This document shows positions 8,471 to 43,362 of a DNA stretch of 50,385 nucleotides, in pieces. The position numbers were made by a program, and so were the translations under genes. The stretch lies in the NCBI GenBank assembly GCA_017479085.1, contig JAFVCQ010000233.1, positions 1-50,385 of the forward strand, read 5' to 3'. Every line of letters starts with the position of its first letter. Within the stretch, counting starts at the first letter, position 1. This DNA is from Lachnospiraceae bacterium. Its GTDB lineage: Bacteria > Bacillota > Clostridia > Lachnospirales > Lachnospiraceae. Under the pieces are notes generated by a model, which made no database searches, was not told the origin of the DNA, and saw only the letters and a list, made by a program, of their open reading frames with translations.

Positions 8471-8485
8471 TAACCTCGCTACAAG

Positions 8486-8553
8486 CTGTGGAATCTGTTC
8501 ACCCTGCCAGCCAATCTCTCTGGCAAACTCCACAATATCCTCTGCCATTCCGC
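8486..8553. repeat. 68-bp direct repeat, copy 1 (partner at 18044..18111)
   Basis: ctgtggaatctgttcAccctgccagccaatctctcTggcaaactccacaatatcctctgccattccgc matches the second copy at 66 of 68 positions, in the same orientation. Confidence 0.9.
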
Positions 8554-16507: not shown

Positions 16508-16849
16508 TTATGTCTTCTTGCTTAGCGAACCAAGCACGATCTCATACGCCTTATCCAACAAATCCTTTAGGAGATCACCCGGCACTTCTCCGTCCGCCCT
16601 TATCGAATTCCAATGTGTCTTGTTCATATAGTAACCGGGAATGATATCCTCATACTGCTTTCGCAGGAAATCTCCCTCCATCGGATCAAGCTTCAAAGTG
16701 ATGTAATATGGATTACCGTCAGAGTCCATACAGACAGCAGCAAACATTTTCGCGCCTACCTGATAGCGCATCCAGTTCCAGTCTTTTTGCAAATCCTTAG
16801 TAACACCCGGCTTTCCTTTCAAGTATTCATCAATCCCAGCATATTTCAT
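16508..16849 (-). CDS. MmcQ/YjbR-family DNA-binding protein
   Basis: KPGVTKDLQKDWNWMRYQVGAKMFAAV...YITLKLDPMEGDFL...PGYYMNKTHWNSI matches the YjbR pattern. Confidence 0.75.
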   Translation of the reverse strand: MKYAGIDEYLKGKPGVTKDLQKDWNWMRYQVGAKMFAAVCMDSDGNPYYITLKLDPMEGDFLRKQYEDIIPGYYMNKTHWNSIRADGEVPGDLLKDLLDKAYEIVLGSLSKKT

Positions 16850-17262
16850 TTGTCCTTTCCTCCATAGGTTATTCTCATGGTCTCAGCTACTTTCAACAGA
16901 TTTTCTCGAACCTCTTTCGGTTCCAACACCTCCACCTTTTCTCCAAAGGTAAGTATCCAGACGAGCAGATTCTCCATGTCAGTATAATCAGCGGAAAATA
17001 AAAGCTTTCCTTCCTCTGTCTCCACATAGCAATGTGGTCCAAATTCTTCCACCAGCCTCCACTTCACTTCCGGAGCAAACAGGGCTTTGACCATGATACC
17101 GTCTGGAAATATCCTCTCATTTGACAAATCCGGCATCGGAACTTCACGACATTCAAATTCCGTATCCAGGACAGCCACCTTATCCATCCGGTTCAGCTTG
17201 AACAGACGGAAAGTCATGACCACTGGCTCTGCCGGTGGTTTGCGGAAGCCCCTCCGGGGCAT
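16846..17262 (-). pseudogene. C-terminal fragment of a WYL-domain (YafY-like) transcriptional regulator
   Basis: TFRLFKLNRMDKVAVLDTEF resembles the R.FRL.RI end of a WYL domain. It is followed by a WCX-like C-terminal domain (LLVWILTFGEKVEVLEPKEVRE). The HTH and most of the WYL domain are missing. The ORF begins exactly at the IS200 end. Confidence 0.55.
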
Positions 17263-17950
17263 TTTTCGGTTCCGCCTATAGGCGGGGGCTAAACAACCAT
17301 TTTTTTCGGTACTGCCTATAGGCAGTGTGACTATTTAACCTCTGGTACTTGACCGCCTCTTAAAAGAGGCTCTTCATTAACCTTCAATTCTACTACACTC
17401 TTCTTGCTCTTCAATATACTTCTTGATTGTTTCCTCATTTACCTGTCCAATAGTTTCGACATAATATCCTCTTGCCCAGAAATGCCTTCCATATTTGTCA
17501 CGATACTCTGGATGTCGATCAAAAATCATTAATGCGCTTTTTCCTTTCAATTTTGACATCACTGTTGAAATACTCATTTTAGGCGGGACAGATATGTATA
17601 AATGTACATTATACATGGTCCGAGCATACGCCTCCCTTAATTAATTCAACACCTATGATTTTACACACTTTTGAAAGAATCTCACCAATTTCTTTTCCTA
17701 GAACCCCATACATTGCTTTTCTACGATATTTAGGAATAAATACAATATGGTACGTGCAATTATACTTTGTATGTGCTAAACTTTGATTGTCCATTATGGA
17801 TCCTCCGTATTCTATAGATTTTGGTTGCCTAGACCGCTATCTATTATAATACGGAGGTTTTTCTTTTGGTACTCTGGGTAACGCTACTGCTTACTCCGTT
17901 CTCCCCGTCTCTGACGGGGGCTTAATGGACAATCAGTTAAGATTTTTATC
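17263..17950 (-). mobile_element. IS200/IS605-family insertion sequence (IS200 group, tnpA only), boundaries approximate
   Basis: A Y1-transposase gene is flanked by structured ends with no terminal inverted repeats. On one side: perfect palindromes ccgcctataggcgg (17272-17285) and actgcctataggcagt (17311-17326), plus hairpin gcctcttaaaagaggc (17355-17370). On the other: ctccgtatt...aatacggag and ccccgtctctgacgggg (about 17905-17922). Confidence 0.7.
17377..17794 (-). pseudogene. tnpA: IS200-type Y1 transposase TnpA, disrupted by a 7-nt insertion
   Basis: MDNQSLAHTKYNCTYHIVFIPKYRRK...GGVCSDHV stops, and MYNVHLYISVPPKMS...FWARGYYVETIG...IKKYIEEQ continues in another frame. The minus strand reads GACCATGTATAATGTACATTTATAC. 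Removing 7 nt (TATAATG) restores D-H-V-H-L-Y, the HUH motif region. Confidence 0.85.
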
Positions 17951-18043
17951 ACTATTCGCAGTCGCTTTGTATCCAACTGCCAATAATAAAAAGCATTCTC
18001 TTTGCACCAGTCACGTCGTGAGAGACCGCTCTCATTGACCAAC

Positions 18044-18111
18044 CTGTGGAATCTGTTCGCCCTGCCAGCCAATCTCTCCGGCAAACTCCACAATATCCTC
18101 TGCCATTCCGC
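18044..18111. repeat. 68-bp direct repeat, copy 2 (partner at 8486..8553)
   Basis: 66 of 68 identical to copy 1, same orientation. It sits between the IS200 end and the DUF6273 gene terminator. Confidence 0.9.
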
Positions 18112-18188: not shown

Positions 18189-20300
18189 TTATTTCTGAAT
18201 CTTAACCGTCTTTACCTTACTCCACGTTCCATAGACCTTCTTGCCCGTCGAATCCCCGGTATATGCCCGCACTCTCACATAGTACGTCCTACCTTTTTTC
18301 AGATTCTTCACGGTCAGGGTAAGCTTGTCTGTGGTCTTTGTCTTCTTGCTCTTGGTGAACTTCCTGTTAAGTGCATACTGCACTTCGTATCCCCCCGCTT
18401 TCTTTACCTTCTTCCATCTGATAACGATTGCTTTTTTCTTGCTGTTCTTCGCGGAGCTTATTGTTACCTTGGCTGGTTTGGTAACCGTCTGTTCAGTCGT
18501 GCCTGTCTGTTCAACTACAGCGGTCTGTCCGGCAGCAGGCGTCTGTCCGGCAGCAGAGGCATCTGCGTTACCGTTGGAATGATTGGCTCCGGCATCACCG
18601 TTGGCATTGTTATTTGCTTCGTCAGAATTGTTATCCTGGCTGCTGTCATTGTCACCGGAGGTATTATTGTCACCGTCCTCTTCCTTTATCGAAAGCGGAT
18701 CAGATACCTGAAAGCTTTCCAAATTCTGTGCCACGGACAGATCAATATGTAAAGCCGGACGCACGGCATGAATTCCTTTACAGTAAGCATTTTCTCCACC
18801 GACATCTACATTACCTTCAGCGAACACATTCGCCGCCTTATAACTGTTAGAACCGGGTGATCTCAGCCACCATGAGCTGTTATTGTTCTCCTCCCGTTTT
18901 GCATCGTTCATATATGCATAATCCGTTGCCTTCACCTCTCTTGTCACGCTATGATCTCCTAACTTTACCTCAAATCCATATGCGCTGTCAGATACTTCCG
19001 CTAAGGATAACAGATACACCTTATCACTGGTGATATTTCCGCCTTCCGTATGAGTGTAGGGATTGTTATCATTTACAACACTCGTTGTCTTAATTGCAGC
19101 CTGTTCCGCATCGGTAAAGGCAGTATTGATAAATGATTCACTATCCCCTGTATCATTTAGCCATGTACGCAGTGTACTCGTCTCCCATGTCACATCCGTA
19201 TCAGTATCATTATACGGCTTGCAATCCAGCACTTGATCCGCAAGCAGAAAGGCGTCATCCCCATCCACAGAAAGAACCCTCCACGTAATCGGTTTTTCCC
19301 TGTAAGAAACATTATTCTGTTTGTAGTTTCCAAAGTATACACAGTCCCATGTGGTAACATCCCCGTTCGCAACGGGATTTCCATATTCACTTGTGGAAGT
19401 CCTTGGTGCTTCCGCTTTGTCAGCCTTCCCATTCGATGTTATCGTTCCCGCATCCGTGAGAATTCCAGAGGACAGTAATTCATCGGAGAATTTGACATGC
19501 AGAGCAGGGCGCACAGCACTACATAAATTGAAATTAGACATATTCAGACCATCGTATAACACTACCTCCACACAATAATTGTCGGCACCGGGAGAACGCA
19601 GCAGCCAACAGCAACTTGTCTCGATTCCCCCTCCCCAACCTGAACCACGGACCGTACCATTCATATGTGCATAATCCGTTGCTGCTGCCATTCTTGTCGC
19701 CCATGGATAGGCAGAATACTTATTAAATCCATATGCTTCGCTTGACGCTTCCTCTATGGACAACAGATATACCTTGTCTTTCGTGTCATTCCCTCCCTCC
19801 GTATCATACTCGGGGTTGTTGTTATTTACAACGGTTGTCTCTATGATTGCAGACTGTTCATCCTGAGTAAATGCAGTATTGATAAATGATTCACTATCCT
19901 CTGTGTCATTCAGCCATGTGCGCAGTGTACTCGTCTCCCATGTGCAGGAATAAGAATCCCTAATGAGATTCTCATCTTCATCCCACTCCTCTACTCCGTT
20001 CGTGTTATATGGCTTGTTGTCGAGTGCCTCATCTGCGAGCAAAAAAACATCATCTCCATCAATCGACAGAATCCTCCACTTAATCGGTTCCGTCTTAAAT
20101 TCTTCCACATCCTGATAATACCTCCCAAACTGCACCATATCCCACGTCACCGTTCCATCTCCGGCAATCCGGGGACTGCTGATGTTATTGGATGCCGCTT
20201 GGACTTTCAGCGTGCTTCCCGCCACTCCCGAAAATGCCGTCAATGCCATGACAGCCGCCGACAGCATCGCAAATCCCTGCTTCCAATTCTTTTTCCTCAT
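18189..20300 (-). CDS. Secreted protein with two DUF6273-like domains, a low-complexity linker and a C-terminal fibronectin type III-like domain
   Basis: Signal peptide MRKKNWKQGFAMLSAAVMALTAFSGVAGS...AAS. There are two copies of the pattern I(K/T)WR(I/V)LS(I/V)DGDD.FLLAD..LD.KPYN...TWETSTLRTWLND...FINTAFT..EQ.AI...V...DKVYLLS..E...WLLRSPG...VRPALH. The C-terminus ends in GYEVQYALNRKF...YYVRVRAYT. Confidence 0.75.
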   Translation of the reverse strand: MRKKNWKQGFAMLSAAVMALTAFSGVAGSTLKVQAASNNISSPRIAGDGTVTWDMVQFGRYYQDVEEFKTEPIKWRILSIDGDDVFLLADEALDNKPYNTNGVEEWDEDENLIRDSYSCTWETSTLRTWLNDTEDSESFINTAFTQDEQSAIIETTVVNNNNPEYDTEGGNDTKDKVYLLSIEEASSEAYGFNKYSAYPWATRMAAATDYAHMNGTVRGSGWGGGIETSCCWLLRSPGADNYCVEVVLYDGLNMSNFNLCSAVRPALHVKFSDELLSSGILTDAGTITSNGKADKAEAPRTSTSEYGNPVANGDVTTWDCVYFGNYKQNNVSYREKPITWRVLSVDGDDAFLLADQVLDCKPYNDTDTDVTWETSTLRTWLNDTGDSESFINTAFTDAEQAAIKTTSVVNDNNPYTHTEGGNITSDKVYLLSLAEVSDSAYGFEVKLGDHSVTREVKATDYAYMNDAKREENNNSSWWLRSPGSNSYKAANVFAEGNVDVGGENAYCKGIHAVRPALHIDLSVAQNLESFQVSDPLSIKEEDGDNNTSGDNDSSQDNNSDEANNNANGDAGANHSNGNADASAAGQTPAAGQTAVVEQTGTTEQTVTKPAKVTISSAKNSKKKAIVIRWKKVKKAGGYEVQYALNRKFTKSKKTKTTDKLTLTVKNLKKGRTYYVRVRAYTGDSTGKKVYGTWSKVKTVKIQK

Positions 20301-20426
20301 TTTCTTATCCTCCTCTAAACACTTTTAAATGAATACCCCCTTGATATAACCAGACTCTGCCAAAAGAATTCCGGTAATCATAAGAGATTGTATCAAAGCT
20401 CCATTTCATATTACCACTTTTTTCAC

Positions 20427-20475
20427 ACAAAAAAAGCCGCTAACCAAAAATAACACAGTTAGCGACAAAATTAAC
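20427..20475. repeat. Imperfect direct repeat flanking the TIR operon, promoter-distal copy (partner 27693..27741)
   Basis: acaaaaaaagCcgCtaaccaaaaataacacAGttagcgacaaaattaac matches the partner at 45 of 49 positions. Weaker similarity extends to 20401. It contains the hairpin cgctaac-N13-gttagcg. Confidence 0.85.
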
Positions 20476-20565
20476 CAAATTTTCTCAAGCTTTTTTGAAA
20501 AACCTTCTCTATTGCAGCTTTGCCGGTCCCCGCTTTCCGCAGCAGAGCTGCGGAAAATGGGATTC

Positions 20566-22740
20566 TCATTCAGCTCTTTTTTCATCTAACCGGTAGATTC
20601 GAAGACCATCATACAGCTTCAGAAGCTCCAGCATACACTCTAACGGTTCCTTATCCTTGCCTTGTTCACCTTTTGGAAGATTATAATAATTTTCTTCTGC
20701 CTCCTCCTGACTGATGACACCATCCTGCACGACCATGTTCCATTTGTCCTTCGGAATCATACAGAAATGCTGTCTTTTTCTTTCCCGTTCATCCCCTTTG
20801 AGCTTCTCATACTTTTTCTTTGTCCTTCCGTCCTCCGTCACAGTCTCACCGGTATAGCCGGTTCCGCACCATCCCATCTCATACTGCCGCTCAAGCCACC
20901 GGTAATGCTCTGCCGGAGCCATGGTTTCTATGTCATCGGAAGTGAATTCCTTTACAATATCATAATCGACCGAACGATCCGTATAAAAACACCCGATCTC
21001 ATTCAAAAGCTTTGCAAACCCCTTCGCCTGCGCAATATTAGACAGCTTATATTCTAGCGACAGCTTCTCGAATTCTGTTTCAAACTCCCTCTCATGCTGC
21101 TGTGCATATTCTACAATCCGATTCTCCTTTTTTGCTCTCTCCCATTCCGTATCATTCCGGGTATATTTCTCAAAATCCTTGCTATACAGAAGTCCCCACC
21201 GGGCATTTAGCACAACCGCAAAGTTATACAGATGAATGAAATTGCTGTCTGACAGATATGTCCGCTTTCTGCTGTTGTTCCGCTTTCTGCATTCCGTCTC
21301 TACCTGCAGGCAGATTCTGTCACCGCTCTTCTTTTGTGTATCAATGTCAATAATGCGTGCGATGTCCTTCTCAAAATCCCCGCTGCGAAAATCCCCATAT
21401 GCTTTTAGTCTTGGTTTCTCTGCCTTCTTCCCATCTTTACTCCGTTCCTGTGAAACTGCCTTTTGATACTCCGCATCAAATTCGTCCATCTTATGCTTTT
21501 CTTCCTGGTCAAACATATAGGTCGCATATATCACACTGCCCTCAAATACGAACTCGCAATCCATCGGGTGCAGCTCCGTACGGGAATTTCTTCCATAGCT
21601 CGTTCTGTCCCATACCTGCAGCTCATCGCACAGCATTAGCATATATGCCAACGGGTGCAGCTCCGGCTTCAACGGAATATTAACTGCGTCCTTATAAAAT
21701 GCTACACAGAATTTGTACAGGCTGTTATGCAGTATGATCGCTGTCAAAGCATCCACCGTAGCGCAGTCTACTTCAAGATTCAATTCCTCAAACAGCTTCT
21801 TGAACAGAATGGTCGCACTGAAATAGCCATGATCCATAAAATTGCCAAATGCATCCGGATGCACCGGTTTGCGCATCAGGATATCCCGCATGGACTCTCT
21901 TGAAAAGCAGTATGTTTCGGAAAGCTTATTGGCCAGATCGAATGCAAACAGATCATTGGTATCGTGAAAGATAACCTCCTGCATGCGATAGCGTCCATCC
22001 TTCGCATACAGTCTTGCCAGCCTGCGCTTTAAATCCTCATCAATACGGATATAATCCTCCAACTGCCGATATGCGAGGAACGGCTTGCCTGCACGCTTTT
22101 GCTTATCCACTTCAAAATAAGACGCTACCTGCTCAAACGGAAGCTCAAACGGATATCCGATATCATGAAACAGAGAAGCAAGGCCCCAGTAATGCAGAAA
22201 ATGGTGTGCTGCTTCTTCTCCCGCCTTTCTCTGTCCCTCATAGAATCTCTGATAAACCTTGCGGTATGCCGCATTCGATTCATAGATCGCAAGCCCAAGC
22301 AAAAATACATAGACCGAATGGGAGTAATGATCCCTGTGCTTCATCAAAAGGGAACTTCCGTTATTCTCAAATTCCGAGAGAAGCTCCACCATACGCCTGC
22401 TTTGCTCATAGCCGCCAAGGAACATCTCCATAAAACAGAAATACACATCAAAGGCATCCTCCCTTGTACCGGATTCCAGAAAATGTCTTGCTGCATTTTC
22501 CAGACAAAGCCGGTCTATATCCATCTCCATATTGTACGGAATCTGATTCTGCCTGATACTGCTGCCAAGCATTTTTCCATCTGTGTTTTCCTTGATCATC
22601 TTATCTGTATCATAGCGCAGATTTTCACATGTCTTATACAGGAAGCGGAGTGCTGCCCCCTGTAAACCGTTCTGTTTCTCTGTCGCCGGACTATGCTCTA
22701 ATATATGTCCGTCAGCATCCTTCAACATATTGTATGCCAT
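20566..22740 (-). CDS. HD-domain phosphohydrolase fused to C-terminal RyR-like repeat(s)
   Basis: Start set at MAYNMLKD (SD GGGAGGATAACAGG), 19 nt after the upstream stop. HD motifs: KHRDHYSHSVYVFLLGLAIY, LASLFHDIGYPFELPFE, ILHNSLYKF, MLMLCDELQVWDR. The C-terminus APAEHYRWLERQYEMGW...RKRQHFCMIP...YYNLPKGEQGKDKEPLECMLELLK fits the RyR-domain pattern. A weaker copy precedes it (NFAVVLNARWG...LSLEYKLSNIAQAKGFAKLLNEIG). Confidence 0.6.
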   Translation of the reverse strand: MAYNMLKDADGHILEHSPATEKQNGLQGAALRFLYKTCENLRYDTDKMIKENTDGKMLGSSIRQNQIPYNMEMDIDRLCLENAARHFLESGTREDAFDVYFCFMEMFLGGYEQSRRMVELLSEFENNGSSLLMKHRDHYSHSVYVFLLGLAIYESNAAYRKVYQRFYEGQRKAGEEAAHHFLHYWGLASLFHDIGYPFELPFEQVASYFEVDKQKRAGKPFLAYRQLEDYIRIDEDLKRRLARLYAKDGRYRMQEVIFHDTNDLFAFDLANKLSETYCFSRESMRDILMRKPVHPDAFGNFMDHGYFSATILFKKLFEELNLEVDCATVDALTAIILHNSLYKFCVAFYKDAVNIPLKPELHPLAYMLMLCDELQVWDRTSYGRNSRTELHPMDCEFVFEGSVIYATYMFDQEEKHKMDEFDAEYQKAVSQERSKDGKKAEKPRLKAYGDFRSGDFEKDIARIIDIDTQKKSGDRICLQVETECRKRNNSRKRTYLSDSNFIHLYNFAVVLNARWGLLYSKDFEKYTRNDTEWERAKKENRIVEYAQQHEREFETEFEKLSLEYKLSNIAQAKGFAKLLNEIGCFYTDRSVDYDIVKEFTSDDIETMAPAEHYRWLERQYEMGWCGTGYTGETVTEDGRTKKKYEKLKGDERERKRQHFCMIPKDKWNMVVQDGVISQEEAEENYYNLPKGEQGKDKEPLECMLELLKLYDGLRIYRLDEKRAE

Positions 22741-22759
22741 CCTGTTATCCTCCCGATTC

Positions 22760-24235
22760 TTAATTTTCACCGCATACTTCCCTTAATTTTCGAAGCACCA
22801 TCACCATTGCATAGGTATCCAGACCGCAGTATTTCAACAGATGTGTGCGCATAACAGCAATTTCATCCGCAGAGTGATTCCCCATATCTGCATAATATGC
22901 CGATGCCTCTGCGCCATTGTGCACCCCCTCCAGCCTGTGATAATCAAGCTCCGATTCCTCCGGCCACAGAGCAGGCAGCACATACTTGATGGAATACGAG
23001 CCCTGCATCGCTGCACTGTAGTAATACTGTTTCTGAAACGGCACCATCAAGTCAACGATATGGTCATGTATATGGAGCAAATGCTCTCCAATATCCGGAA
23101 ATGTAGCTGCAAGATGCCTGATCACTGTCTTTTCAAAAGACATATTGTATGCTGTCACACACGCATTTTCCGGAATATCTGCGATCAGGTGCTGTGCCAG
23201 TGTTCTTCTGGGATCCTTCCCCTCCTCTGCCAGAAATTCCAGATGCCGAAGCCCGCCATGTCCGTCCTCCACATGAATCGAGTACTGAAATGGAATCTGC
23301 TCATACGGATGGATGCCGTCAAACTCCGGAACCGCCTGCTGAAAGGTCTCAAAATCCAGATGATAGACCGGATAGGAAAGCGTATCCAGAAATGTCCGGA
23401 TCTCCTCCTTATCGCATACATCCGGCCGATCCCCACAGACGCTTTCCACCTGCCGCCGCTGATTATCGTTCATCACCTCCGGATGCTCCATCAGATCCGC
23501 ATAGCTGATAATGCCCTGATGGTAGAGTGTGTACTTTTTCTTCGTCTGCATGCGTACCAGGTCAAAGACCGAATGCTCCGGTATATGTCTGCCACAATAC
23601 GAACGATACACGCATGGATATGGCTTTTCACAATAACAGTCAAGTTCCCGCTCCGGCTCCGTATCTGTATCTATGTACGTCTGTATCTCCCGAATGCGTT
23701 TCTCCATTCCGTCTGCCTGTTCTTTCACAGACTCCGTGCAGTCCTCTAAAGCGAACAGCCGCCTGATGTCCAGTTCCCCCATGCGCACATAGGTGGAATC
23801 GATATGCATACAGTATATATGCCCCACAGGCACACCGCACTGACGCAGAACATGATATTGGAATGCCATGTCCTCTATATGCTCTTCCTTTACCCTGGTC
23901 GAGCTCTTGACCTCAACAATATCCCATCCACTGTTATTTTTGTGCAGCAGATCCACGGCACAGTACAGTCCGTCATGGGTAAATGCTGCCTCTGCGATAC
24001 ATTCCGTTCCCTGCTCCATAAGCGTTCTTGTAGCAGAAACCATCTCCTCCCTGCAAAAGGAAACATTTACAACCACACAATCACCAAAATACTGTCTTGC
24101 CAGTTCCCCCACCTTTACTCCGGTTTCCAGAACAGCGTCCGAAGCCGCCCCGTCTGCCTTCTCCGGCATATACCGGTCCATCCAGAGAATTTTGGGACAC
24201 TGAATGCCCTTACAATATCGGGATTTACTCATTTC
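22760..24235 (-). CDS. DUF2779-family protein: Cas4-like PD-(D/E)XK nuclease domain plus DEDD-type (RNase H-fold) exonuclease domain
   Basis: Start set at MSKSRYCKGIQCPKILW, the typical DUF2779 N-terminus (SD AAAGGA). Nuclease motifs: DLLHK...WDIVEVKSS. Cys cluster: C...CYCEKPYPCVYRSYC. The C-terminal half has YHLDFETF (Exo I), AYNMSFEK (Exo II) and YCGLDTYAM (Exo III). Confidence 0.7.
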   Translation of the reverse strand, partial: EMSKSRYCKGIQCPKILWMDRYMPEKADGAASDAVLETGVKVGELARQYFGDCVVVNVSFCREEMVSATRTLMEQGTECIAEAAFTHDGLYCAVDLLHKNNSGWDIVEVKSSTRVKEEHIEDMAFQYHVLRQCGVPVGHIYCMHIDSTYVRMGELDIRRLFALEDCTESVKEQADGMEKRIREIQTYIDTDTEPERELDCYCEKPYPCVYRSYCGRHIPEHSVFDLVRMQTKKKYTLYHQGIISYADLMEHPEVMNDNQRRQVESVCGDRPDVCDKEEIRTFLDTLSYPVYHLDFETFQQAVPEFDGIHPYEQIPFQYSIHVEDGHGGLRHLEFLAEEGKDPRRTLAQHLIADIPENACVTAYNMSFEKTVIRHLAATFPDIGEHLLHIHDHIVDLMVPFQKQYYYSAAMQGSYSIKYVLPALWPEESELDYHRLEGVHNGAEASAYYADMGNHSADEIAVMRTHLLKYCGLDTYAMVMVLRKLREVCGEN

Positions 24236-24356
24236 GTCCTTTTTTTCCAAACGGTTTTCCCTCCCCAATCCACATAACGTTCCTGCCACAGATCCGATCT
24301 GCGGTATCATGCATACCGGCATCCCACCAGTGTCAGCCTCCGTTGCGCCAACACAT

Positions 24357-25580
24357 TTACATATCATCCATCAGCTCCTTGATCGTCTTGCCTTCCTCAT
24401 TCACCCAGTAGGTCGTCCCCCGAAGCGTCTTGACTAACGGTGTGATTCCATGCTGCTTCCGGTAATAATTGATTGCATCTATACCGGCAGAAGATGAGCT
24501 TTCATAGATACCCACAATCTCGCCCTGTTCATTCCGAAAAGGCTTCTCATTTTCGTCCAAAATCTGTAAATAGCAGTCCTTCCTATTTTCCGCAAGCACG
24601 ATCCTTGCATGATATTCCACTCCATCATACTTCATGGTAAAGCGCATGCCGTCTGCCACTTTCCCCCTCCGGTACAGCTCGGTAAAACGGATCACCTGTC
24701 TCTCAATTGCAGACTTCGGGCTTCTCCCATATCTCTCGTCCACAGACAGATAGATCTCGTCAAACACACCCTGATATCTTTCATAGACAAGGCTTTCCGG
24801 ACTTCCCCCCGCTTGCAAGGTATAGCTGCCATCCACTGCATGGAAGATCGCATCCAACACTTCCGTATGCGCATCATAGATATTCTTGCAAAGCTCAATA
24901 TTCGTAAGCGCCATCGGCGCTTTAGAGCCCCTTGCCACCTCTTTGAGATTGGCCGCATACTGCTCTAACAGATACCTTGCATCGCCGGAAAGCTGCGGAT
25001 GCTCCAGACACTTTGCGATCACGTTATCATATAGCTCCTGATAGGTGATCCGTTCGTACATATCCGCATAGGATTTCTGCCGCGGATCCGGTGTGATGAA
25101 GAAATAGCATGCTTTCTGCCGCTCCGTTTTATGCGCCTGCACATAATCATAATAATCCTGTGTCTGCCCCACATCCGAATGGTTGAAATTCTCATGTGCA
25201 TTTACCTTATTCTCTATAACGATAATCAACTCGTCACTCTCACCGTACACATCGATCGACCGCTTCTTCCCCTGCATCGAAGCATCCTTCTCGGTCTGAA
25301 ATCTCACGGTATCCAGGTTCCACCGGTACAGGTCGGCGAGGTCATAGCCGCACTCCGGATTCTTCACCATATACAGAGTGAGCAGTCTGGCGAGCGGGTA
25401 GTGTCCCAGACGCAGGGAGGAATGCGCATCTAAGAGCCAGCTGATAAAGGCACTGTGCCAATGCTCCTTATGCGTCTGTCCCACGATGGAAAACAGATTG
25501 GACTTCTCCTGTTTGTACTTCAGTTCCTGAAATCCGGAATCCGTCACCAGGGATTCAATCTGTGTATATGTCACTGCCAT
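24357..25580 (-). CDS. PD-(D/E)XK nuclease (PDDEXK_4-like) with an extra C-terminal domain
   Basis: SD AGGAGAG lies 6 nt upstream; the start is 15 nt after the TIR gene stop. NLFSIVGQTHKEHWHSAFISWLLDAHSSLRLGH plus SIDVYGES..LIIVIENKVNAHE....GQTQDYYDY gives the D...E.K core. The C-terminal ~110 aa end ...IYESSSSAGIDAINYY...RGTTYWVNEEGKTIKEL. Confidence 0.65.
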   Translation of the reverse strand: MAVTYTQIESLVTDSGFQELKYKQEKSNLFSIVGQTHKEHWHSAFISWLLDAHSSLRLGHYPLARLLTLYMVKNPECGYDLADLYRWNLDTVRFQTEKDASMQGKKRSIDVYGESDELIIVIENKVNAHENFNHSDVGQTQDYYDYVQAHKTERQKACYFFITPDPRQKSYADMYERITYQELYDNVIAKCLEHPQLSGDARYLLEQYAANLKEVARGSKAPMALTNIELCKNIYDAHTEVLDAIFHAVDGSYTLQAGGSPESLVYERYQGVFDEIYLSVDERYGRSPKSAIERQVIRFTELYRRGKVADGMRFTMKYDGVEYHARIVLAENRKDCYLQILDENEKPFRNEQGEIVGIYESSSSAGIDAINYYRKQHGITPLVKTLRGTTYWVNEEGKTIKELMDDM

Positions 25581-25595
25581 ACTGTACTCTCCTGA

Positions 25596-27395
25596 CTAAA
25601 ATAAACTTCTGGGTCTGATGATGTCACCGGAACCCTCTACATCTGTGTCATCACCCGCAGAAAAACCGCCATCTGCCGAAGTGTTTCCCGCATTCTCGAC
25701 TGAAGTATTTGGTGTCTCAGACCCGGACGTTTCCAGATACAGATTCCCGCTTCCCATTTCTCTCCGCCTACTCTGTGAGCCACCGGCAATAACATTGATG
25801 ATTGTAGCAATTCCGTTATATTGGAAGTCCTGCGTGAACACATCATCTACAATCACACCCTGTCGTTCTAATTCCTTCTTTAGCCCATACCCCTGTACAT
25901 TCCGGAACTTATCCGATTCCTTTGCGGTCCTGGAACCGGCTAAGACGACACACTCCCTGCCTTCTCCATCCCATTGAATATGCGCATCCCCGTTTTTCAC
26001 CTGGTACCGCCAGATGCCTTTGGAAGCGTTTTCGGAACCGTCCTTATCACCGGACATATCTTCTGAATATGGATTTGCCGGGATCTTTCCTGCAGCGCTT
26101 TCCTGCCCCGACGGTATCAAAAGATCATCTGACTTTGGCTGTACCGCGTCTGTTTCAGATTCCGGATTTGCCAAGATCCGCGTAACCGAAACTCTCAAAA
26201 GATTTTTCTCAGACAACAGCTCACTTCCATTTGTACTCACAGCCTCAATGAACTTTGCCGCAGCCGACATGGTATCAAAAGCCACATCCTCCATCAATAT
26301 CCCATCGGCAGATATTTTGTCCAAATACTCCCTGTACCTTTGGGAAACCCATTGATTGTCCCTCTGTAACCGGCTTCCACGCAACACGGTATAGATATCA
26401 TTTTCAATCCGGTACAGCGCATCGTATTTTGCGTTTCTTCCCGATCTCTGATATGTCTTTCCATCCGGAAAGTATGTGATACTGTTGTCTCCGCTCTCCC
26501 GAACTGACTCTGGCTGATTCACAGAAGTTGTAAGGAGAGCCTTCTCCGGCGGAACCGATGCGGCAACTTCCTTCTCCACAGTTTGCGCGGCCTCGAATGG
26601 AGACTGCTGTGCATCTGCTTTTGTTTCCGGCTTTGATGAAACTTGTGCAGCGGAAACTTTGCCAAACGAAGGGGTTGCGTGTTCTCCCTTTGAGGATTCC
26701 TTCAAATTAGGATCGAAAACATCCTTACTTACACTTTTGATTGTTTCATACAGGCTATCTAGCGATCTAGGACCAGTTAAATAATTATCTTGAAATCCAG
26801 CTTCATTCAAAATTTTCATAAATGCCTTATACAATTGTTGCCTGGTTATAGCGTTGTCTTTCAACGAGATCGCAATGTCATTATAAGAGTGAGCTGCACT
26901 CTTCATGGCTGCACCGCTCCCATCAGCTTCTCTATCTATAGTTTTACCAATTAGAGATAAACATTCTTTTTCAGTGGTTGTCATTTTTACTTTCGAAGAA
27001 GCCAAATCACCAGTTGGTTTTTCTAAATTCTTTTTTTCTGACAGATAAACCGGAATTATATCCTTTCCTTCTTTAATGCCTTCTAGCAACTCTATGCAAG
27101 CTGCATAGCTGGCAATATAATCCTCACTAACAAACAACATAATGCCTGCTGCATCTTTTATATTGTCGAGCACCTGGGTAATCCAGTTCTCATTCCTATT
27201 ATTTAGTTCCTTATCTGCATATACACGCAGACCATACTTCTGTTGAAGAGGAATAACGATCTCTTGGAATACACGCTTCCAGTTATTACTTACATAACTT
27301 ACAAAAATATATCTCGAACTATCTGTATAATTGGTAGTTATTAAATTTCTCAGTGCCTCTTCGCGTTCCCTCTTCTCATCTCCACTAAGTCCCAT
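25596..27395 (-). CDS. TIR-domain protein with helical region, low-complexity linker and two DUF4357-like C-terminal modules
   Basis: Start set at ATG 27395 (SD AGGAGA, 6-nt spacer); the track ORF starts at an upstream GTG. RYIFVSYVSNNWKRVFQEIVIPLQQKYGLRVYADKEL...ENWITQVLDNIKDAAGIMLFVSEDYIASYAACIELL follows the bacterial TIR pattern, including the conserved Glu (E102, codon 27090-27092). Two later modules carry V(L)xGS...G(I/V)(L/I)...F...(SAAA)...NG-type motifs. Confidence 0.7.
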   Translation of the reverse strand: MGLSGDEKREREEALRNLITTNYTDSSRYIFVSYVSNNWKRVFQEIVIPLQQKYGLRVYADKELNNRNENWITQVLDNIKDAAGIMLFVSEDYIASYAACIELLEGIKEGKDIIPVYLSEKKNLEKPTGDLASSKVKMTTTEKECLSLIGKTIDREADGSGAAMKSAAHSYNDIAISLKDNAITRQQLYKAFMKILNEAGFQDNYLTGPRSLDSLYETIKSVSKDVFDPNLKESSKGEHATPSFGKVSAAQVSSKPETKADAQQSPFEAAQTVEKEVAASVPPEKALLTTSVNQPESVRESGDNSITYFPDGKTYQRSGRNAKYDALYRIENDIYTVLRGSRLQRDNQWVSQRYREYLDKISADGILMEDVAFDTMSAAAKFIEAVSTNGSELLSEKNLLRVSVTRILANPESETDAVQPKSDDLLIPSGQESAAGKIPANPYSEDMSGDKDGSENASKGIWRYQVKNGDAHIQWDGEGRECVVLAGSRTAKESDKFRNVQGYGLKKELERQGVIVDDVFTQDFQYNGIATIINVIAGGSQSRRREMGSGNLYLETSGSETPNTSVENAGNTSADGGFSAGDDTDVEGSGDIIRPRSLF

Positions 27396-27692
27396 TTTCT
27401 GTCTCCTTTCTTTTACCACATTCGTGATGATTATCTCTTCCTTAATTCATTGCTCTGAGTCTCATCCATTTCTAAAGTCAAAAACACAATCCCACTACAG
27501 ATTCCCAGTCCATAGGTAGCACCAAAGGTGTCAAACCATATATTATAAAATGCCCTTGCGAGTTGTCCCTTCTTCGCATATTTTAAACAGCTAAATAATA
27601 TGTGCACAACCTAACCATTTAAAATACTGTGTGGCTATAACTCTGTCTTCTCCTTACATCATATGGTTACTCCATTTTACCATCTTTTTCAT

Positions 27693-27741
27693 ACAAAAAA
27701 AGACGTTAACCAAAAATAACACGATTAGCGACAAAATTAAC
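27693..27741. repeat. Imperfect direct repeat flanking the TIR operon, promoter-proximal copy (partner 20427..20475)
   Basis: acaaaaaaagAcgTtaaccaaaaataacacGAttagcgacaaaattaac is followed by an extra partial unit, acagttagcggcaaaatcaac, to about 27767. Weaker similarity extends back to 27672. Confidence 0.85.
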
Positions 27742-27974
27742 ACAGTTAGCGGCAAAATCAACCAATTTATGACCGTTCAACCGGATTCTGCCGCCATCAT
27801 GCTCATTGTCGCATGTGTTTAAAACCCGGCGCCACAAAGATTGCAGACTCTGCCGGTATAGGTGTGCAGCGATACTAAGTATTTTCAGACAAAACAGGCA
27901 GAACAGCCTTAACTGCTTTGCCTGTCACATCATTCTTATATATTCGAAAAAACAACTCCAAAAGTTTGATTCAT

Positions 27975-29282
27975 TCATCTCCTTTTTCCTGCAAAATAAA
28001 AGAGTGCCGATATGCACACAACCGCCTCTGTCACCGGAAATGCCAGCCACACTCCGGTAAGACCGGCCAGTGCAGAGAGCACAAATGCCATCGGTATGAT
28101 CAGAAACAGTCCCCTTGCCAGAGCGATCCACTGTGCCGGAACCGCTCTCTCCACCGAGGTAAAATAGGATGCGATCACGATGTTAAAGCCCACGAACGGA
28201 ACAGCCAGGAAATACCATCTAAGACCGGACACTGCGATCTGACGAAGCTTTGCATTTCCCTCACTGTTAAATATGCCGGTCACTTCGTCTGCAAATACGA
28301 ACAACAGCAGATAAATTATGACCGACAGGACAAGCATCGTTGTCATTCCGTAGCGAAGCGTCTTTCGAATCCTTATGTGATCTCCCTTTCCATACTCCCT
28401 GCTTATGATCGGCTGTATTCCCTGCGCGATTCCTGTATAGATAGAGACCACTACCAGAGAAAGATTGGCGACCACACCGTAAGCAGCCACTCCGACATTG
28501 CCATCCAGCTTCAGAATCAGGTTATTAAAAACAAGAATCACGATGCCTGAGGATACCTCTGTGACCAGAGAGGGGACTCCCAACGATAGGATGTTTCCGA
28601 TCACTGCCAACTGTGGTGTCTCTTTTTTCAGATGAAATGCATTCCGCTTTTTCAGAAAATGTCCTGATAAAATAAGCATACTGATAAACGGCGCCAGACC
28701 GGTTGCCAGAACCGCACCAAATATTCCCATGTGTAAGGGAAAGATAAAGATATAATCCAGCAGGATATTGGAAAAGCTTCCTCCCAGCATTGCCAGCATG
28801 GAACGCTTTGGACCTCCATCATTCCGGACAAAACAGATCAGGATATTATTCATCAAAAACGCAGGGGAAAACATCAGGATCACCTTCAAATAGGTATTCG
28901 TCATGTCTGCCACCTCTGCATCTGCTCCGAGCAGGCCAGTGATCGTGTGCGACAGAAAAATCCCTGCACAGACAAACAGAACTGCCAAAACAGCCGCAAA
29001 GCACACTGCATTTGTAAATATCCGGTCGGATGCACTGACGTCACGCTGCCCCTTATAGATCGAATATTTGGTCGAACCACCCATCCCCAGCATCAGACCG
29101 CAGCCATGAAGAAAACTGTAAACCGGGATTGCCAGATTCAGCGCTGTCAGACCATTCACCCCCAATCCTTTTGAAATAAAAAAAGTATCTGCCAGAATAT
29201 AACAGGATAATCCGATCATACCCATGATATTCAGGGATGCATACTTCACATATTCCTTCCAGACAGACTGCTGTTCTCTCAT
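27975..29282 (-). CDS. MATE-family efflux transporter
   Basis: 435 aa, about 12 TM. The N-terminus WKEYVKYASLNIMGMIGLSCYILADTFFISKGLGVNGLTALNLAIPVYSF is typical of MATE/NorM-like proteins. Confidence 0.85.
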   Translation of the reverse strand: MREQQSVWKEYVKYASLNIMGMIGLSCYILADTFFISKGLGVNGLTALNLAIPVYSFLHGCGLMLGMGGSTKYSIYKGQRDVSASDRIFTNAVCFAAVLAVLFVCAGIFLSHTITGLLGADAEVADMTNTYLKVILMFSPAFLMNNILICFVRNDGGPKRSMLAMLGGSFSNILLDYIFIFPLHMGIFGAVLATGLAPFISMLILSGHFLKKRNAFHLKKETPQLAVIGNILSLGVPSLVTEVSSGIVILVFNNLILKLDGNVGVAAYGVVANLSLVVVSIYTGIAQGIQPIISREYGKGDHIRIRKTLRYGMTTMLVLSVIIYLLLFVFADEVTGIFNSEGNAKLRQIAVSGLRWYFLAVPFVGFNIVIASYFTSVERAVPAQWIALARGLFLIIPMAFVLSALAGLTGVWLAFPVTEAVVCISALFYFAGKRR

Positions 29283-30306: not shown

Positions 30307-30440
30307 ACAGCAGATACGTGGCATCCCCTTTTACAAGCGAAAGCTCCGGCAGATTTTCAGACAGATACTCCCTCACCGTCCGCCGGTTTTCCGACAGATA
30401 TACACGAAGCGCATGCAGCCACTCTTCCCCGTTTTGATAA
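30307..30440 (-). repeat. 134-bp duplicated internal fragment of the MalY/PatB-type lyase gene (partner 31522..31655)
   Basis: The two copies are identical except for 2 substitutions (c/g at 30316, g/c at 30415), in the same orientation. Flanking sequence is unrelated on both sides. Confidence 0.9.
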
Positions 30441-30591: not shown

Positions 30592-31179
30592 TTAATTATG
30601 TCTTTGCAATACTTTTATTACTTTACCATCTTTTATAAAAACAATTGTATTTAAAAAGGATGTTCTCGGTGATCGGAATAAATCATTTACTTGTCGTTCA
30701 AGTTCACTCATATCCAAAGGACATTCTGTTATATCGATCACAAAATTATGTGATTGCAGTTGCTTTTTTGCAATCAGTCCCTGGAGAAGATATTTTCCTT
30801 TTCCTGTTGGTGCTTTCAAATCATAACGTTCACCATCAATCAGATAATCAGGTGTTTGTTTACCAAGTGGATACATGATCTGAGGTACAAGTTCTACTAA
30901 TTTGCCGTATTGTTCGGAAAGTGCCACCGCTATTCTCCTTTCCTGTTCCGATGGCTGTAATATAACATGTTTTCCATCTACCACATAAGTCACATTATCC
31001 ACTATGTAAGACAGTTTTTCCACAACCGACCCTGCTTTGTTCTTTTTTGTCCATTCCTTTGTAATATCCATGTGATTGATTGTATCACTTGGATTTGCTT
31101 CTTTCAAGCCTGATTTTTTACCGTCAACAAAAGCTTTCTTCCAATCCTTGTATGTCATGGTTGACGGTACATAATACAC
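30592..31179 (-). pseudogene. 5'-truncated MuF(SPP1 gp7)-type polymorphic-toxin remnant: end of the MuF domain plus a PD-(D/E)xK-like toxin domain
   Basis: (ENGD)VYYVPSTMTYKDWKKAFVDG resembles the conserved C-terminal end of phage head-morphogenesis (MuF) domains. The following ~170 aa contain TPDYLIDGERYDLKAP (PD...D.K), consistent with a restriction-endonuclease fold. The rest of the MuF domain is absent (stop codon a few codons upstream). The DNA is AT-rich relative to its neighbours. Confidence 0.45.
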
Positions 31180-31324: not shown

Positions 31325-32482
31325 CTACCGCTCATAGGCTCTTATCCCTGTCTGTAGTCTCTCCAGTCCATCCAGTACGACAGAACGAGGGCATGCAATA
31401 TTCATCCGTAAAAAGCCGGGTGCGCCAAACGGTTCCCCATCCGAGAGATACAGCCCTGTTTCCCTGCGGATAAACTGTGTCATCTGCTTTCCGCTTCCCT
31501 TGATCTTTCCGGCATCCAGCCACAGCAGATAGGTGGCATCCCCTTTTACAAGCGAAAGCTCCGGCAGATTTTCAGACAGATACTCCCTCACCGTCCGCCG
31601 GTTTTCCGACAGATATACACGAAGCGCATCCAGCCACTCTTCCCCGTTTTGATAAGCAGCCACGACACTGGACACGGCAAATGCATTCGGCTCTGCAACC
31701 TCATCCGTATTCAATGCCCGCCAGACCTTGTGCCGGAGCGTCTTATTCGGTATACAGACAGCAGCACTCTGCATCCCTGCCAGATTAAATGTCTTAGACG
31801 GCGACATACAGGTGATACTGATATCCCGACAGATATCCGAAACCGATGCAAACGGAATATAATCCGTCCCCGGCTCTGTGAGATCACAGTGAATCTCGTC
31901 TGACAACACCGTCACCTGATATTTCTCACATAATTCGCCAATTCCCGCAAGGGTCTCCCTGTCCCATATCTTTCCGGAGGGATTCTGTGGATTACATAGG
32001 ATCATCAAAGAGGTCTGCGGATTCTTCAGCTTTTCTTCCAGATCTTCAAAATCCACCCGGTACTCTCCATCCGTTAGCAGCAATGAATTCTCCAATACAT
32101 TCCGCCCGTTATTCCGGATGGAGTGAAAGAAAATGTTATATACCGGCGTCTGGACCAGCACATTCTCCCCGGGCGTTGTCAGCTTCCGCACCGCACTGGA
32201 AATCGCAGGCACCACGCCGGTGCAGAAGACCAGCCATTCTTTCCGTATCTCAAACCCATGGCGTTTCCTCCACCAATCCATGTATGCCGTATACCACTCA
32301 TCGGGAATGATCTGATATCCGAAAATGCCAGACTCAGTCTTTTTTTGAATCGCCTCTATGATTGCCGGCGCCGTCTGAAAATCCATGTCCGCCACCCACA
32401 TCGGAAGCTCCTTCTCCCCCACATTCCATTTCAGGGAACCACTTCCCCTTCTGTCTATGATCTGGTCAAAATTATATTGCAT
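31325..32482 (-). CDS. MalY/PatB-family PLP-dependent C-S lyase (aminotransferase class I/II fold)
   Basis: MQYNFDQIIDRRGSGSLKWN...LPMWVADMDF...PVYNIFF...LCNPQNPSGK...SPSKTFNLAG (PLP lysine). Confidence 0.9.
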   Translation of the reverse strand: MQYNFDQIIDRRGSGSLKWNVGEKELPMWVADMDFQTAPAIIEAIQKKTESGIFGYQIIPDEWYTAYMDWWRKRHGFEIRKEWLVFCTGVVPAISSAVRKLTTPGENVLVQTPVYNIFFHSIRNNGRNVLENSLLLTDGEYRVDFEDLEEKLKNPQTSLMILCNPQNPSGKIWDRETLAGIGELCEKYQVTVLSDEIHCDLTEPGTDYIPFASVSDICRDISITCMSPSKTFNLAGMQSAAVCIPNKTLRHKVWRALNTDEVAEPNAFAVSSVVAAYQNGEEWLDALRVYLSENRRTVREYLSENLPELSLVKGDATYLLWLDAGKIKGSGKQMTQFIRRETGLYLSDGEPFGAPGFLRMNIACPRSVVLDGLERLQTGIRAYER

Positions 32483-43199: not shown

Positions 43200-43362
43200 G
43201 CTGTACCTCCATCTATACTCGCAAACGCAATTGTTTTCCAAATAAACATTTACATCGTGGTATATACCGTTAACCTAACCATTTGCTGCCTGCAAATGCT
43301 AAGGAACTGCTAAAATAAATATCAGCAATAAATAATACCAGTAAGAGTGTTATCTTTCCTGT

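Follow-up and report, generated by a model that had tools for sequence, protein, structure and literature searches.

Between positions 20566 and 27395 of a 50,385-nucleotide contig from a Lachnospiraceae bacterium (JAFVCQ010000233.1, assembly GCA_017479085.1; this whole stretch is hereafter the window), four intact minus-strand open reading frames (ORFs) encode a TIR-domain protein, a PDDEXK_4 nuclease, a DUF2779 protein and a putative HD-type phosphohydrolase with a C-terminal RyR-like domain (HD-RyR). Judged by its recurrence across genomes, the block is a conserved and functionally linked set rather than a chance neighbourhood, and its apparent core is the pair of HD-RyR and TIR. It may well be a Thoeris-like TIR signalling system of Clostridia, a reading to which we give about even chances, in which the RyR domain would be the receptor, the HD domain the effector and the nucleases accessory, with defence as the presumed function. 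A first-pass annotation, made from the window alone, had called the block a candidate undescribed defence system, and this label is fair in view of the domain calls, the conserved gene set and the lack of a multi-gene match in PADLOC.

HD-RyR (20566-22740, minus strand, 724 aa) is the most conserved member of the gene set and its anchor. More than 2400 full-length homologs were retrieved, none of which has a Pfam or PADLOC assignment. In the HD-type metal-binding region (residues ~130-380; 21601-22353, minus strand), H135, H138, H141, H192-D193, D303-H304, H338-N339 and D372 are invariant in 61 relatives and make up an H...HD...D signature. HD and RyR were the commonest two families among the members, with sub-threshold matches to Pfam HD in 11 of the 61 relatives (best value 0.0023) and to RyR in 13. 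The C-terminal RyR/Repeat12-like domain (residues ~560-716; 20593-21063, minus strand) contains an insertion of 21 aa specific to the window. When the HD-RyR family profile was compared with the PDB, it retrieved Repeat12 structures of RyR1/RyR3 (6uhi, E = 8.6e-5) and the bacterial RyR structures 3nrt and 6uag. The aligned segment reads EH-x-RW...GW...R-x-H...KD, in which H612, W615, H658 and K695-D696 are at least 90% conserved. Profile match and ligand-residue conservation together place the domain, on sequence criteria, in the RyR/Repeat12 family. Of the assignments suggested earlier from the single protein, whose own Pfam matches stay below threshold, the RyR-like C-terminus is borne out by the family profile, and the HD domain is probable in view of the invariant residues. 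The AlphaFold2 model of the whole protein had a predicted local distance difference test (pLDDT) score of 84.6 and a predicted template-modelling score (pTM) of 0.91. A phage origin was considered and rejected: an HD relative was present in only 1 of 2.9 million viral contigs, and PHROGs was matched only by the middle module of the TIR protein.

To our knowledge, RyR-type domains have so far been known only in phage counter-defence proteins. The phage RyR/Repeat12 proteins RyDEP (PMC13232231) and RyR Tad (10.64898/2026.06.04.730250), both reported in 2026, defeat Thoeris, and phage RyR domains bind 2'/3' cyclic ADP-ribose (cADPR) with nanomolar affinity or cleave it (PMC13232231; 10.64898/2026.06.04.730250). 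RyDEP contacts its ligand through H75, W78, H100 and D117 (PMC13232231), and RyR Tad sequesters 3'cADPR at 43 nM via H129/W132, K147/H154 and K170/D171 (10.64898/2026.06.04.730250). In the window protein, H612/W615, H658 and K695-D696 correspond to these cADPR-contacting His/Trp, His and Lys/Asp residues. The phage proteins belong to the same domain family (PF02026/Repeat12) as HD-RyR and a second RyR protein found in related operons, and share with both the H-x-x-W, His and Lys/Asp positions. However, the phage RyR proteins are small sponges or glycosidases that counter Thoeris, whereas here host genes encode the RyR domain, which is joined to an HD enzyme or a membrane protein and genetically linked to a TIR gene. 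The RyR repeat had been treated as decoration in the first-pass annotation; it is probably the key element instead, since RyR/Repeat12 domains bind or cleave cADPR signals.

Relatives of HD-RyR occur in 513 of 185,579 GTDB species genomes (one genome per species), mostly in Lachnospiraceae, Oscillospiraceae and Ruminococcus and in a few Erysipelotrichaceae, with a patchy distribution even within families. Gene linkage was counted in the 80 best loci (these and further loci are cited below by L numbers), all ORFs of which were scanned with hidden Markov models (HMMs) built iteratively from cluster members. A TIR gene lies immediately downstream of the HD gene in 35 of the 65 loci with at least 2 kb of downstream sequence, and within 10 kb in 44 of them. 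With at least 6 kb downstream (53 loci), 37 loci carry TIR, 21 PDDEXK_4, 19 the second RyR protein of ~450 aa (RyR-450) and 4 DUF2779. These partner counts are undercounts, because one locus scored as having the HD gene alone (L080) carries a TIR-WD40 gene that was missed by the HMMs. Nine loci are two-gene HD-TIR loci; they would fit a minimum of one sensor and one effector, the latter being HD-RyR.

The usual gene order is HD-RyR, TIR, PDDEXK_4, the ~450-aa membrane RyR protein and sometimes DUF2779, with gaps of typically 10-50 nt. A recurrent full cluster (L009-L012) consists of a 96-aa gene, HD, a 559-694-aa TIR gene, PDDEXK_4, the ~453-aa RyR protein and DUF2779, and its 559-694-aa protein aligns to the window TIR protein with 27% identity over 459 aa (E = 4e-32). 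Exactly the four genes of the window are present in L052 and L100, in the order HD, TIR, PDDEXK_4, DUF2779, and the four genes plus a fifth are found in L009-L012, L020, L022, L032 and L093-L095. The three closest homologs of the DUF2779 protein that were looked up (64-65% identical) all stand at the 3' end of this same operon in other genomes (L093-L095, L100). Compared with the order in L052 and L100, the window holds a permuted version in which HD comes last.

Divergence of the members is correlated as well. Pairwise identity of the HD proteins correlates with that of PDDEXK_4 (r = 0.60), RyR-450 (r = 0.57) and TIR (r = 0.37), each with a Mantel p of at most 0.001. This is consistent with inheritance as a unit, with shared species phylogeny contributing to the signal. 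On their frequencies of 21/53, 19/53 and 4/53, PDDEXK_4, RyR-450 and DUF2779 are facultative members. The earlier proposal that the four genes form one operon unit therefore stood insofar as the unit recurs (L052 and L100), and had to be narrowed insofar as HD-RyR and TIR appear to be the core and the rest facultative.

RyR-450, the membrane protein of the canonical operons, carries two N-terminal hydrophobic, transmembrane (TM) helices and, at its C-terminus, a RyR domain, together with a GxGxxG Rossmann (RCK-like) region; the RyR domain matched Repeat12 structures with an E-value of 1.7e-13. The His/Trp, His and Lys-Asp ligand positions are conserved in it as in HD-RyR. It could be a channel-type effector, as suggested by the two TM helices, the RCK-like region and a weak match to potassium channels. 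In the six-gene form, the 96-aa ORF, which has no family match, lies directly upstream of HD (L009:9686-9976, L011:9677-9967, L020 and L022).

The TIR protein (25596-27395, minus strand, 599 aa) matched Pfam TIR_2 with 38.1 bits against a cutoff of 28 (E = 2.5e-9), and its catalytic domain (26691-27314, minus strand) includes the conserved Glu E102. F31, S33, Y34, D61, W71, F88 and E102 are invariant in 58 relatives, and E102 reaches at least 90% conservation among the 58 TIR ORFs linked to the operon. TIR_2 was matched by 55 of these 58 partner ORFs, and ThsB_TIR also in 11. The protein comprises TIR plus a helical domain (residues 1-235), followed by modules at 301-410 and 457-558 on disordered linkers. 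Residues 1-235 were modelled confidently by AlphaFold2, with a pLDDT above 90 in the TIR region, and Foldseek gave a probability of 1.0 for the signal-producing TIR domains of the plant NLRs RPP1, RPS4, SNC1, RUN1 and ROQ1, with matches also to ThsB, AbTir and SPARTA. The profile match, E102 and these structural matches all agree with the first assignment of a TIR domain with a catalytic-type Glu.

The rest of the TIR protein is far less constant. C-termini of the family are a mosaic of LRR, TPR, Sel1, NACHT, MrcB_N, WD40 and DUF4357-like modules, and mean identity is 23% in the TIR region compared with 57-67% in HD, a pattern expected for a sensor under diversifying pressure. In the window protein, the middle module matched PADLOC PDC-S14 (2.6e-10) and also PDC-S57, with a weak match to DUF4357, a domain otherwise fused to the GmrSD, McrB and GIY-YIG restriction proteins; within the block it alone found matches in PHROGs. 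BLASTP detected no similarity between the two C-terminal modules (E = 0.62), and an internal duplication is thus unsupported. Exhaustive HMMER searching retrieved 382 TIR relatives, and a word-index homolog search returned the query alone.

Both nuclease assignments made at first pass hold. The PDDEXK_4 protein (24357-25580, minus strand, 407 aa) scored 48.6 bits against a Pfam cutoff of 22.3 (E = 1.2e-12), and D110 and E123-N124-K125 are invariant in the family. With the operon copies of L009 and L011 it shares 54-55% identity, its C-terminal half is conserved and has no assigned fold, and a PDB sequence search found no relative. The protein also matched 11 PADLOC PDC-S26 models (best E = 3.4e-32) over residues 6-249 only, that is, the N-terminal nuclease half. 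The DUF2779 protein (22760-24232, minus strand, 490 aa from the homolog-supported Met) scored 156.9 bits against a cutoff of 23.3 for PF11074 (E = 3.9e-46), a family with more than 6000 matches. Its architecture joins a Cas4/RecB-like Fe-S nuclease half to an RNase-H-like exonuclease half; Cas4 itself (18.1 bits against 22.7) and RNase_H_2 are sub-threshold, NCBIfam gave only weak UU173/TM0106 RecB-like matches, and a PDB sequence search gave none. D94, E107-V108-K109, the cysteines C7/C12/C201/C207/C213, D293-F-E-T and N363..F366-E367 are invariant, which includes the D...EVK, Cys-cluster, DFET and YN..FE motifs pointed out before.

Based on these data, we propose the following mechanism. The TIR protein, with its conserved Glu and its fast-evolving, exchangeable C-terminal half, would be both infection sensor and signal synthase, and would make an ADP-ribose-derived messenger, most likely a cADPR isomer, from nicotinamide adenine dinucleotide (NAD+). 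The messenger would be read by the C-terminal RyR/Repeat12 domain of the HD protein and, in most other genomes, by a second reader, the membrane-anchored protein with two TM helices, a Rossmann region and a RyR domain. Ligand binding is predicted to switch on the HD phosphohydrolase, whose substrate could be nucleic acid or nucleotides, and the PDDEXK_4 and DUF2779 nucleases would be facultative accessory effectors. We infer the cADPR-type signal, its binding by RyR, HD activation and phage defence; what is directly observed is the identity of the domains, the conservation of catalytic and ligand-contact residues, and the conserved linkage of the genes. The ligand-residue pattern in both RyR proteins, next to a TIR gene, points to the Thoeris logic of a signal synthase paired with a signal-binding effector. 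This logic is suggested although neither SLOG nor Macro is present, because RyR/Repeat12 domains bind or cleave the cADPR signals of Thoeris (PMC13232231; 10.64898/2026.06.04.730250).

Several observations weigh against a Thoeris-like system or against parts of the proposed mechanism, every step of which is derived from sequence. At the level of domains, the window HD-RyR protein scored only 13.8 bits against a cutoff of 22 for Pfam HD and was unmatched by Pfam RyR at E-values up to 0.1. Foldseek with the whole HD-RyR model found no significant match in the PDB or BFVD, the best being a PPX/GppA HD-like domain at E = 0.06; this negative is weak evidence, because with the multi-domain query even the RyR domain was missed. 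At the level of linkage, 14 of the 53 loci have no TIR, PDDEXK_4, RyR-450 or DUF2779 partner in the ORF scan, and HD stands alone in 24 of the 80, among housekeeping genes in all of them except L080; one group of loci (L002-L007) has its HD-RyR, P0006, among housekeeping genes too. The window lacks the RyR-450 and 96-aa genes, and most full operons have RyR-450. The first-pass annotation had appealed to a defence island, and this argument proved weak: most flanking genes, both here and in 22 further loci, are housekeeping ones, and PADLOC applied to 139 flanking proteins of 22 loci found little beyond WYL and no enrichment of known defence genes other than WYL. Finally, the RyR domain could degrade rather than sense the signal, by analogy with RyDEP, whose catalytic His and Asp are conserved here, and the model leaves the role of the two nucleases unexplained.

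The possibility of degradation leads to an alternative in which the TIR protein is itself an NAD+-depleting effector, as in SPARTA and some CBASS and AVAST systems, and HD-RyR is a regulator or off-switch that clears ADP-ribose or cADPR to limit self-toxicity or recycle NAD+. RyDEP-type RyR glycosidases do cleave cADPR, and their catalytic His and Asp positions recur in HD-RyR; many phosphodiesterases are found among HD enzymes, and the TIR model also resembles the NADase TIRs of SPARTA and AbTir. We nevertheless rate this arrangement unlikely. The minimal conserved unit is TIR plus HD-RyR, HD-RyR exceeds the other members in conservation and frequency and is also found without a TIR gene, and the second RyR protein, with its TM helices, resembles an effector rather than a hydrolase. 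It seems just as improbable that each of the four is an independent, single-gene defence or nuclease unit, gathered with the others in a small islet with no mutual signalling. Fixed order and tight spacing across genomes, between proteins that are only 50-60% identical, argue for a unit, as do the correlated divergence of the members, the variable flanks around a cluster that stays together, and the presence of the same rare cADPR-binding domain in two different cluster proteins beside a TIR gene. Independence would nonetheless account for the modular membership (PDDEXK_4 in 40%, RyR-450 in 36%, DUF2779 in 8%, and HD alone in about a quarter of assessable loci), for the large size of the DUF2779 (>6000) and HD (>2400) families, and for the listing by PADLOC of PDDEXK_4 alone (PDC-S26) and the likeness of the TIR middle module to the single-gene PDC-S14 and PDC-S57.

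A non-immune cellular role is less likely still. In sporulating Clostridia the genes might, for example, take part in stress signalling linked to NAD/ADP-ribose or in the repair of DNA, and the nucleases would then act on host DNA. The mainly housekeeping flanks and the lack of enrichment of known defence genes nearby would agree with such a role, as would the HD-RyR genes that often stand alone in conserved neighbourhoods, beside DUF4321, ArsC, PPK2 and SpoVT (L002-L007). A housekeeping function fits poorly, however, with a presence in only 513 of 185,579 species genomes, patchy within families, and with hypervariable TIR C-termini (LRR, TPR, WD40, NACHT) that are typical of immune sensors. 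Adjacent WYL regulators and the discovery of the PDDEXK_4 family by a defence-island screen (PADLOC PDC-S26) also speak for immunity.

A Thoeris-like signalling system thus being our preferred reading, we compared the block with described systems. The TIR survey of Yirmiya et al., a 2025 preprint, gives eleven validated and 29 putative Thoeris types, the validated effectors being SIR2-SLOG, Macro-TM, SLOG, caspase, DUF2270, DUF6650, SLATT, CMP hydrolase, TIR, ion channel and HIT (10.64898/2025.12.03.692087). Its main text contains no mention of RyR, HD domain, PDDEXK or DUF2779 (10.64898/2025.12.03.692087). Pfam, PADLOC and NCBIfam detected no domain of the eleven validated effectors in any of the four window proteins; an HD or RyR class may be among the 18 unvalidated types. 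Because no validated effector type is present, we file the block as Thoeris-like in its working and outside every described type. As in Thoeris types I-XI (ThsB TIR plus ThsA/C-L effectors), a TIR protein that has a catalytic Glu and whose sensor region varies stands beside a putative effector with a candidate small-molecule-binding domain, and effectors swap modularly. Unlike Thoeris, the putative receptor is RyR/Repeat12 rather than SLOG, Macro or another of its domains, the candidate effector is a putative HD phosphohydrolase, and up to three further genes (PDDEXK_4, the membrane RyR protein and DUF2779) are present. The possibly channel-type RyR-450 of canonical operons recalls type X Thoeris (TIR plus ion channel); RyR-450 is absent from the window, however, and the type X TIRs given in Table S1 of the survey are of another TIR type (10.64898/2025.12.03.692087).

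Other systems fit less well. The first-pass annotation had noted the lack of a Thoeris ThsA, a cyclase and an Argonaute, and indeed none of these domains occurs in the four proteins; the marks of CBASS, Pycsar and SPARTA (CD-NTase, cyclase, Argonaute) are missing from the annotated neighbours as well. Models for HD-RyR, RyR-450, DUF2779 and the 96-aa protein are lacking in PADLOC v2.0.0, and none of its multi-gene systems covers the set. The earlier statement that the gene set matches no named TIR system holds for the multi-gene systems of PADLOC; PDDEXK_4 by itself is already a single-gene candidate (PDC-S26). Whereas PDC-S26 is a single-gene PDDEXK_4 system, the match here is confined to the nuclease half and the gene lies within a conserved multi-gene operon. 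The N-terminal half of the DUF2779 protein, with its D...EVK motif and Cys cluster, resembles the RecB-family Fe-S nucleases of the Cas4/AddB type and TM0106/UU173; unlike Cas4, the protein falls below the Cas4 threshold and is fused to an RNase-H-like exonuclease half. No CRISPR array or cas genes were found in the annotated neighbourhood, for which no dedicated CRISPR-array scan was run.

The interest of the finding lies in the linkage of a TIR gene to host-encoded RyR domains, which yields the specific prediction of a new Thoeris-type receptor. Tentatively, and with somewhat less than even confidence, we suggest that host RyR/Repeat12 domains are native receptors of TIR-made, cADPR-type signals in an unrecognised Thoeris type with HD and channel-like outputs, and that phage RyDEP and RyR Tad are captured copies. 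If true, TIR-based immunity in bacteria would gain both a new receptor domain and a new class of effector. The source of the phage anti-Thoeris RyR proteins would be explained, and there would be a bacterial precedent for the action of cADPR on RyR Repeat12, a point long debated for calcium signalling in animals. Carriers of the system are confined to Clostridia of the gut and rumen, which are under-sampled by defence screens based on E. coli and Bacillus. One cultured carrier is [Clostridium] aminophilum DSM 10710 (L046), which has HD-RyR, TIR and RyR-450.

The layout of the block agrees closely with its first description. The four co-oriented genes are intact in the ORF list of the window, and a purine-rich stretch resembling a Shine-Dalgarno site lies before every start. 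In transcription order (TIR, PDDEXK_4, DUF2779, HD-RyR) the gaps are 15, 124 and 19 nt; the outer two are as given before, and the middle one differs trivially from the earlier 121. Co-orientation carries little weight, because nearly the whole 50-kb window is encoded on the minus strand. The start codons of DUF2779 and HD were fixed by full-length homologs, which begin MSKSRYCKG... and MAYxML..., respectively; an alternative upstream ATG at 24367 would give a DUF2779 protein of 535 aa. The best sigma-70-like promoter match upstream of the TIR gene is GGGACA-16-TATAAT (27542-27569, minus strand, 10/12), a match to consensus only in a region whose hit total is at or below the shuffled expectation.

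Direct repeats of 69 nt bracket the block, as was noted at the outset. The downstream copy lies at 20407-20475 and the upstream copy at 27673-27741, ~280 nt before the TIR start and ahead of the best promoter-like match; the two are identical at 61 of 69 positions (88%). A partial third copy, offset by 21 nt, is found at 27694-27762. Only the downstream copy folds as a terminator-like hairpin (20429-20463, minus strand), with an 8-bp stem followed by U7, and this hairpin could be the terminator of the operon. The folding z-scores of the hairpin-bearing downstream copy (-1.6) and the other copy (-1.2) are not significant, and a scan of the whole window against Rfam gave no family at or above its gathering score. 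That the repeat is the end of a shared mobile element was considered and provisionally rejected: it is absent from the other compared loci, apart from a metagenome scaffold that carries the same block (L008), and the block contains no integrase or transposase. No empty insertion site was recovered through the flanking genes, the MATE protein being unmatched and the HTH protein found on the same scaffold only. The repeat may be a trace of the assembly or insertion of the permuted cassette.

The neighbours of the block are, as described at first pass, a MatE pump and a secreted DUF6273 protein. A MatE gene adjoins the cluster in the window (27975-29282) and also in at least two unrelated loci, L011 (17853-19196) and L026 (12171-13544). 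In scaffold L008 the MATE gene is called in two pieces of 129 and 309 aa, and the window copy is intact (435 aa). The DUF6273/fn3 secreted protein (18189-20300) contains an internal 219-nt duplication, 78% identical (18972-19190 and 19725-19943), which makes two DUF6273 units. Flank synteny between the window and the loci of its closest HD relatives was not detected, except for a DUF6273 gene that adjoins HD in L001. L099 and L001 carry the closest metagenomic relatives of the window HD gene, which have genes of toxin type as neighbours: in L099 (3932-7067) a frameshifted HD gene (565 + 124 aa) lies between a barnase-family ribonuclease and barstar, and in L001 (5463-6080) the HD gene lies beside a YdjM gene and two large TIR proteins.

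WYL regulators adjoin the operon in 7 of the 22 loci whose flanks were annotated. In at least 6 of these 22 (L018, L020, L032, L034, L035 and L038), a WYL protein of ~410 aa followed by an AAA + AAA_lid_6 ATPase of ~660 aa, with a weak PADLOC TRIP13 match, stands beside the HD-TIR operon on either side (for example, L020:18434-19684 and 19807-21798). These two genes may regulate the system as a module of it, or they may make up a distinct system next to it. The window retains a trace of WYL, a 138-aa WCX ORF (16846-17262) ~3.3 kb downstream of the block. The loci L002-L007 share an identical HD-RyR, P0006, and the same downstream genes (DUF4321, ArsC, acylphosphatase, PPK2 and others), and the upstream gene differs in each contig, which points to an assembly junction or a hot spot of rearrangement immediately before the P0006 gene.

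The rest of the window is ordinary accessory chromosome, with the MATE pump, a CdiA_C toxin and an HTH gene, DUF6273 and BspA-LRR surface proteins, a Ser/Thr kinase, KilA-N, IS200-type transposase fragments and the WYL C-terminal (WCX) remnant. The CdiA_C toxin gene (30592-31179) is a second cassette of the window bracketed by a direct repeat, here of 134 nt and 99% identical (30307-30440 and 31522-31655), one copy of which lies within the 3' part of an aminotransferase gene (31325-32482). A 72-nt direct repeat, 96% identical, occurs at 8482-8553 and 18040-18111, 9.6 kb apart, and the latter copy adjoins fragmented ORFs of an IS200/Y1-type transposase (~17374-17794). The gene for a BspA-type LRR surface protein (5942-8392, 816 aa) contains arrays of 27-nt (9-aa) tandem repeats at 6487-6891. 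Two paralogs of the AAA-ATPase_like family (PF09820) are encoded at 1196-2779 and 41490-43241, the second with a C-terminal PDDEXK_9 nuclease domain.

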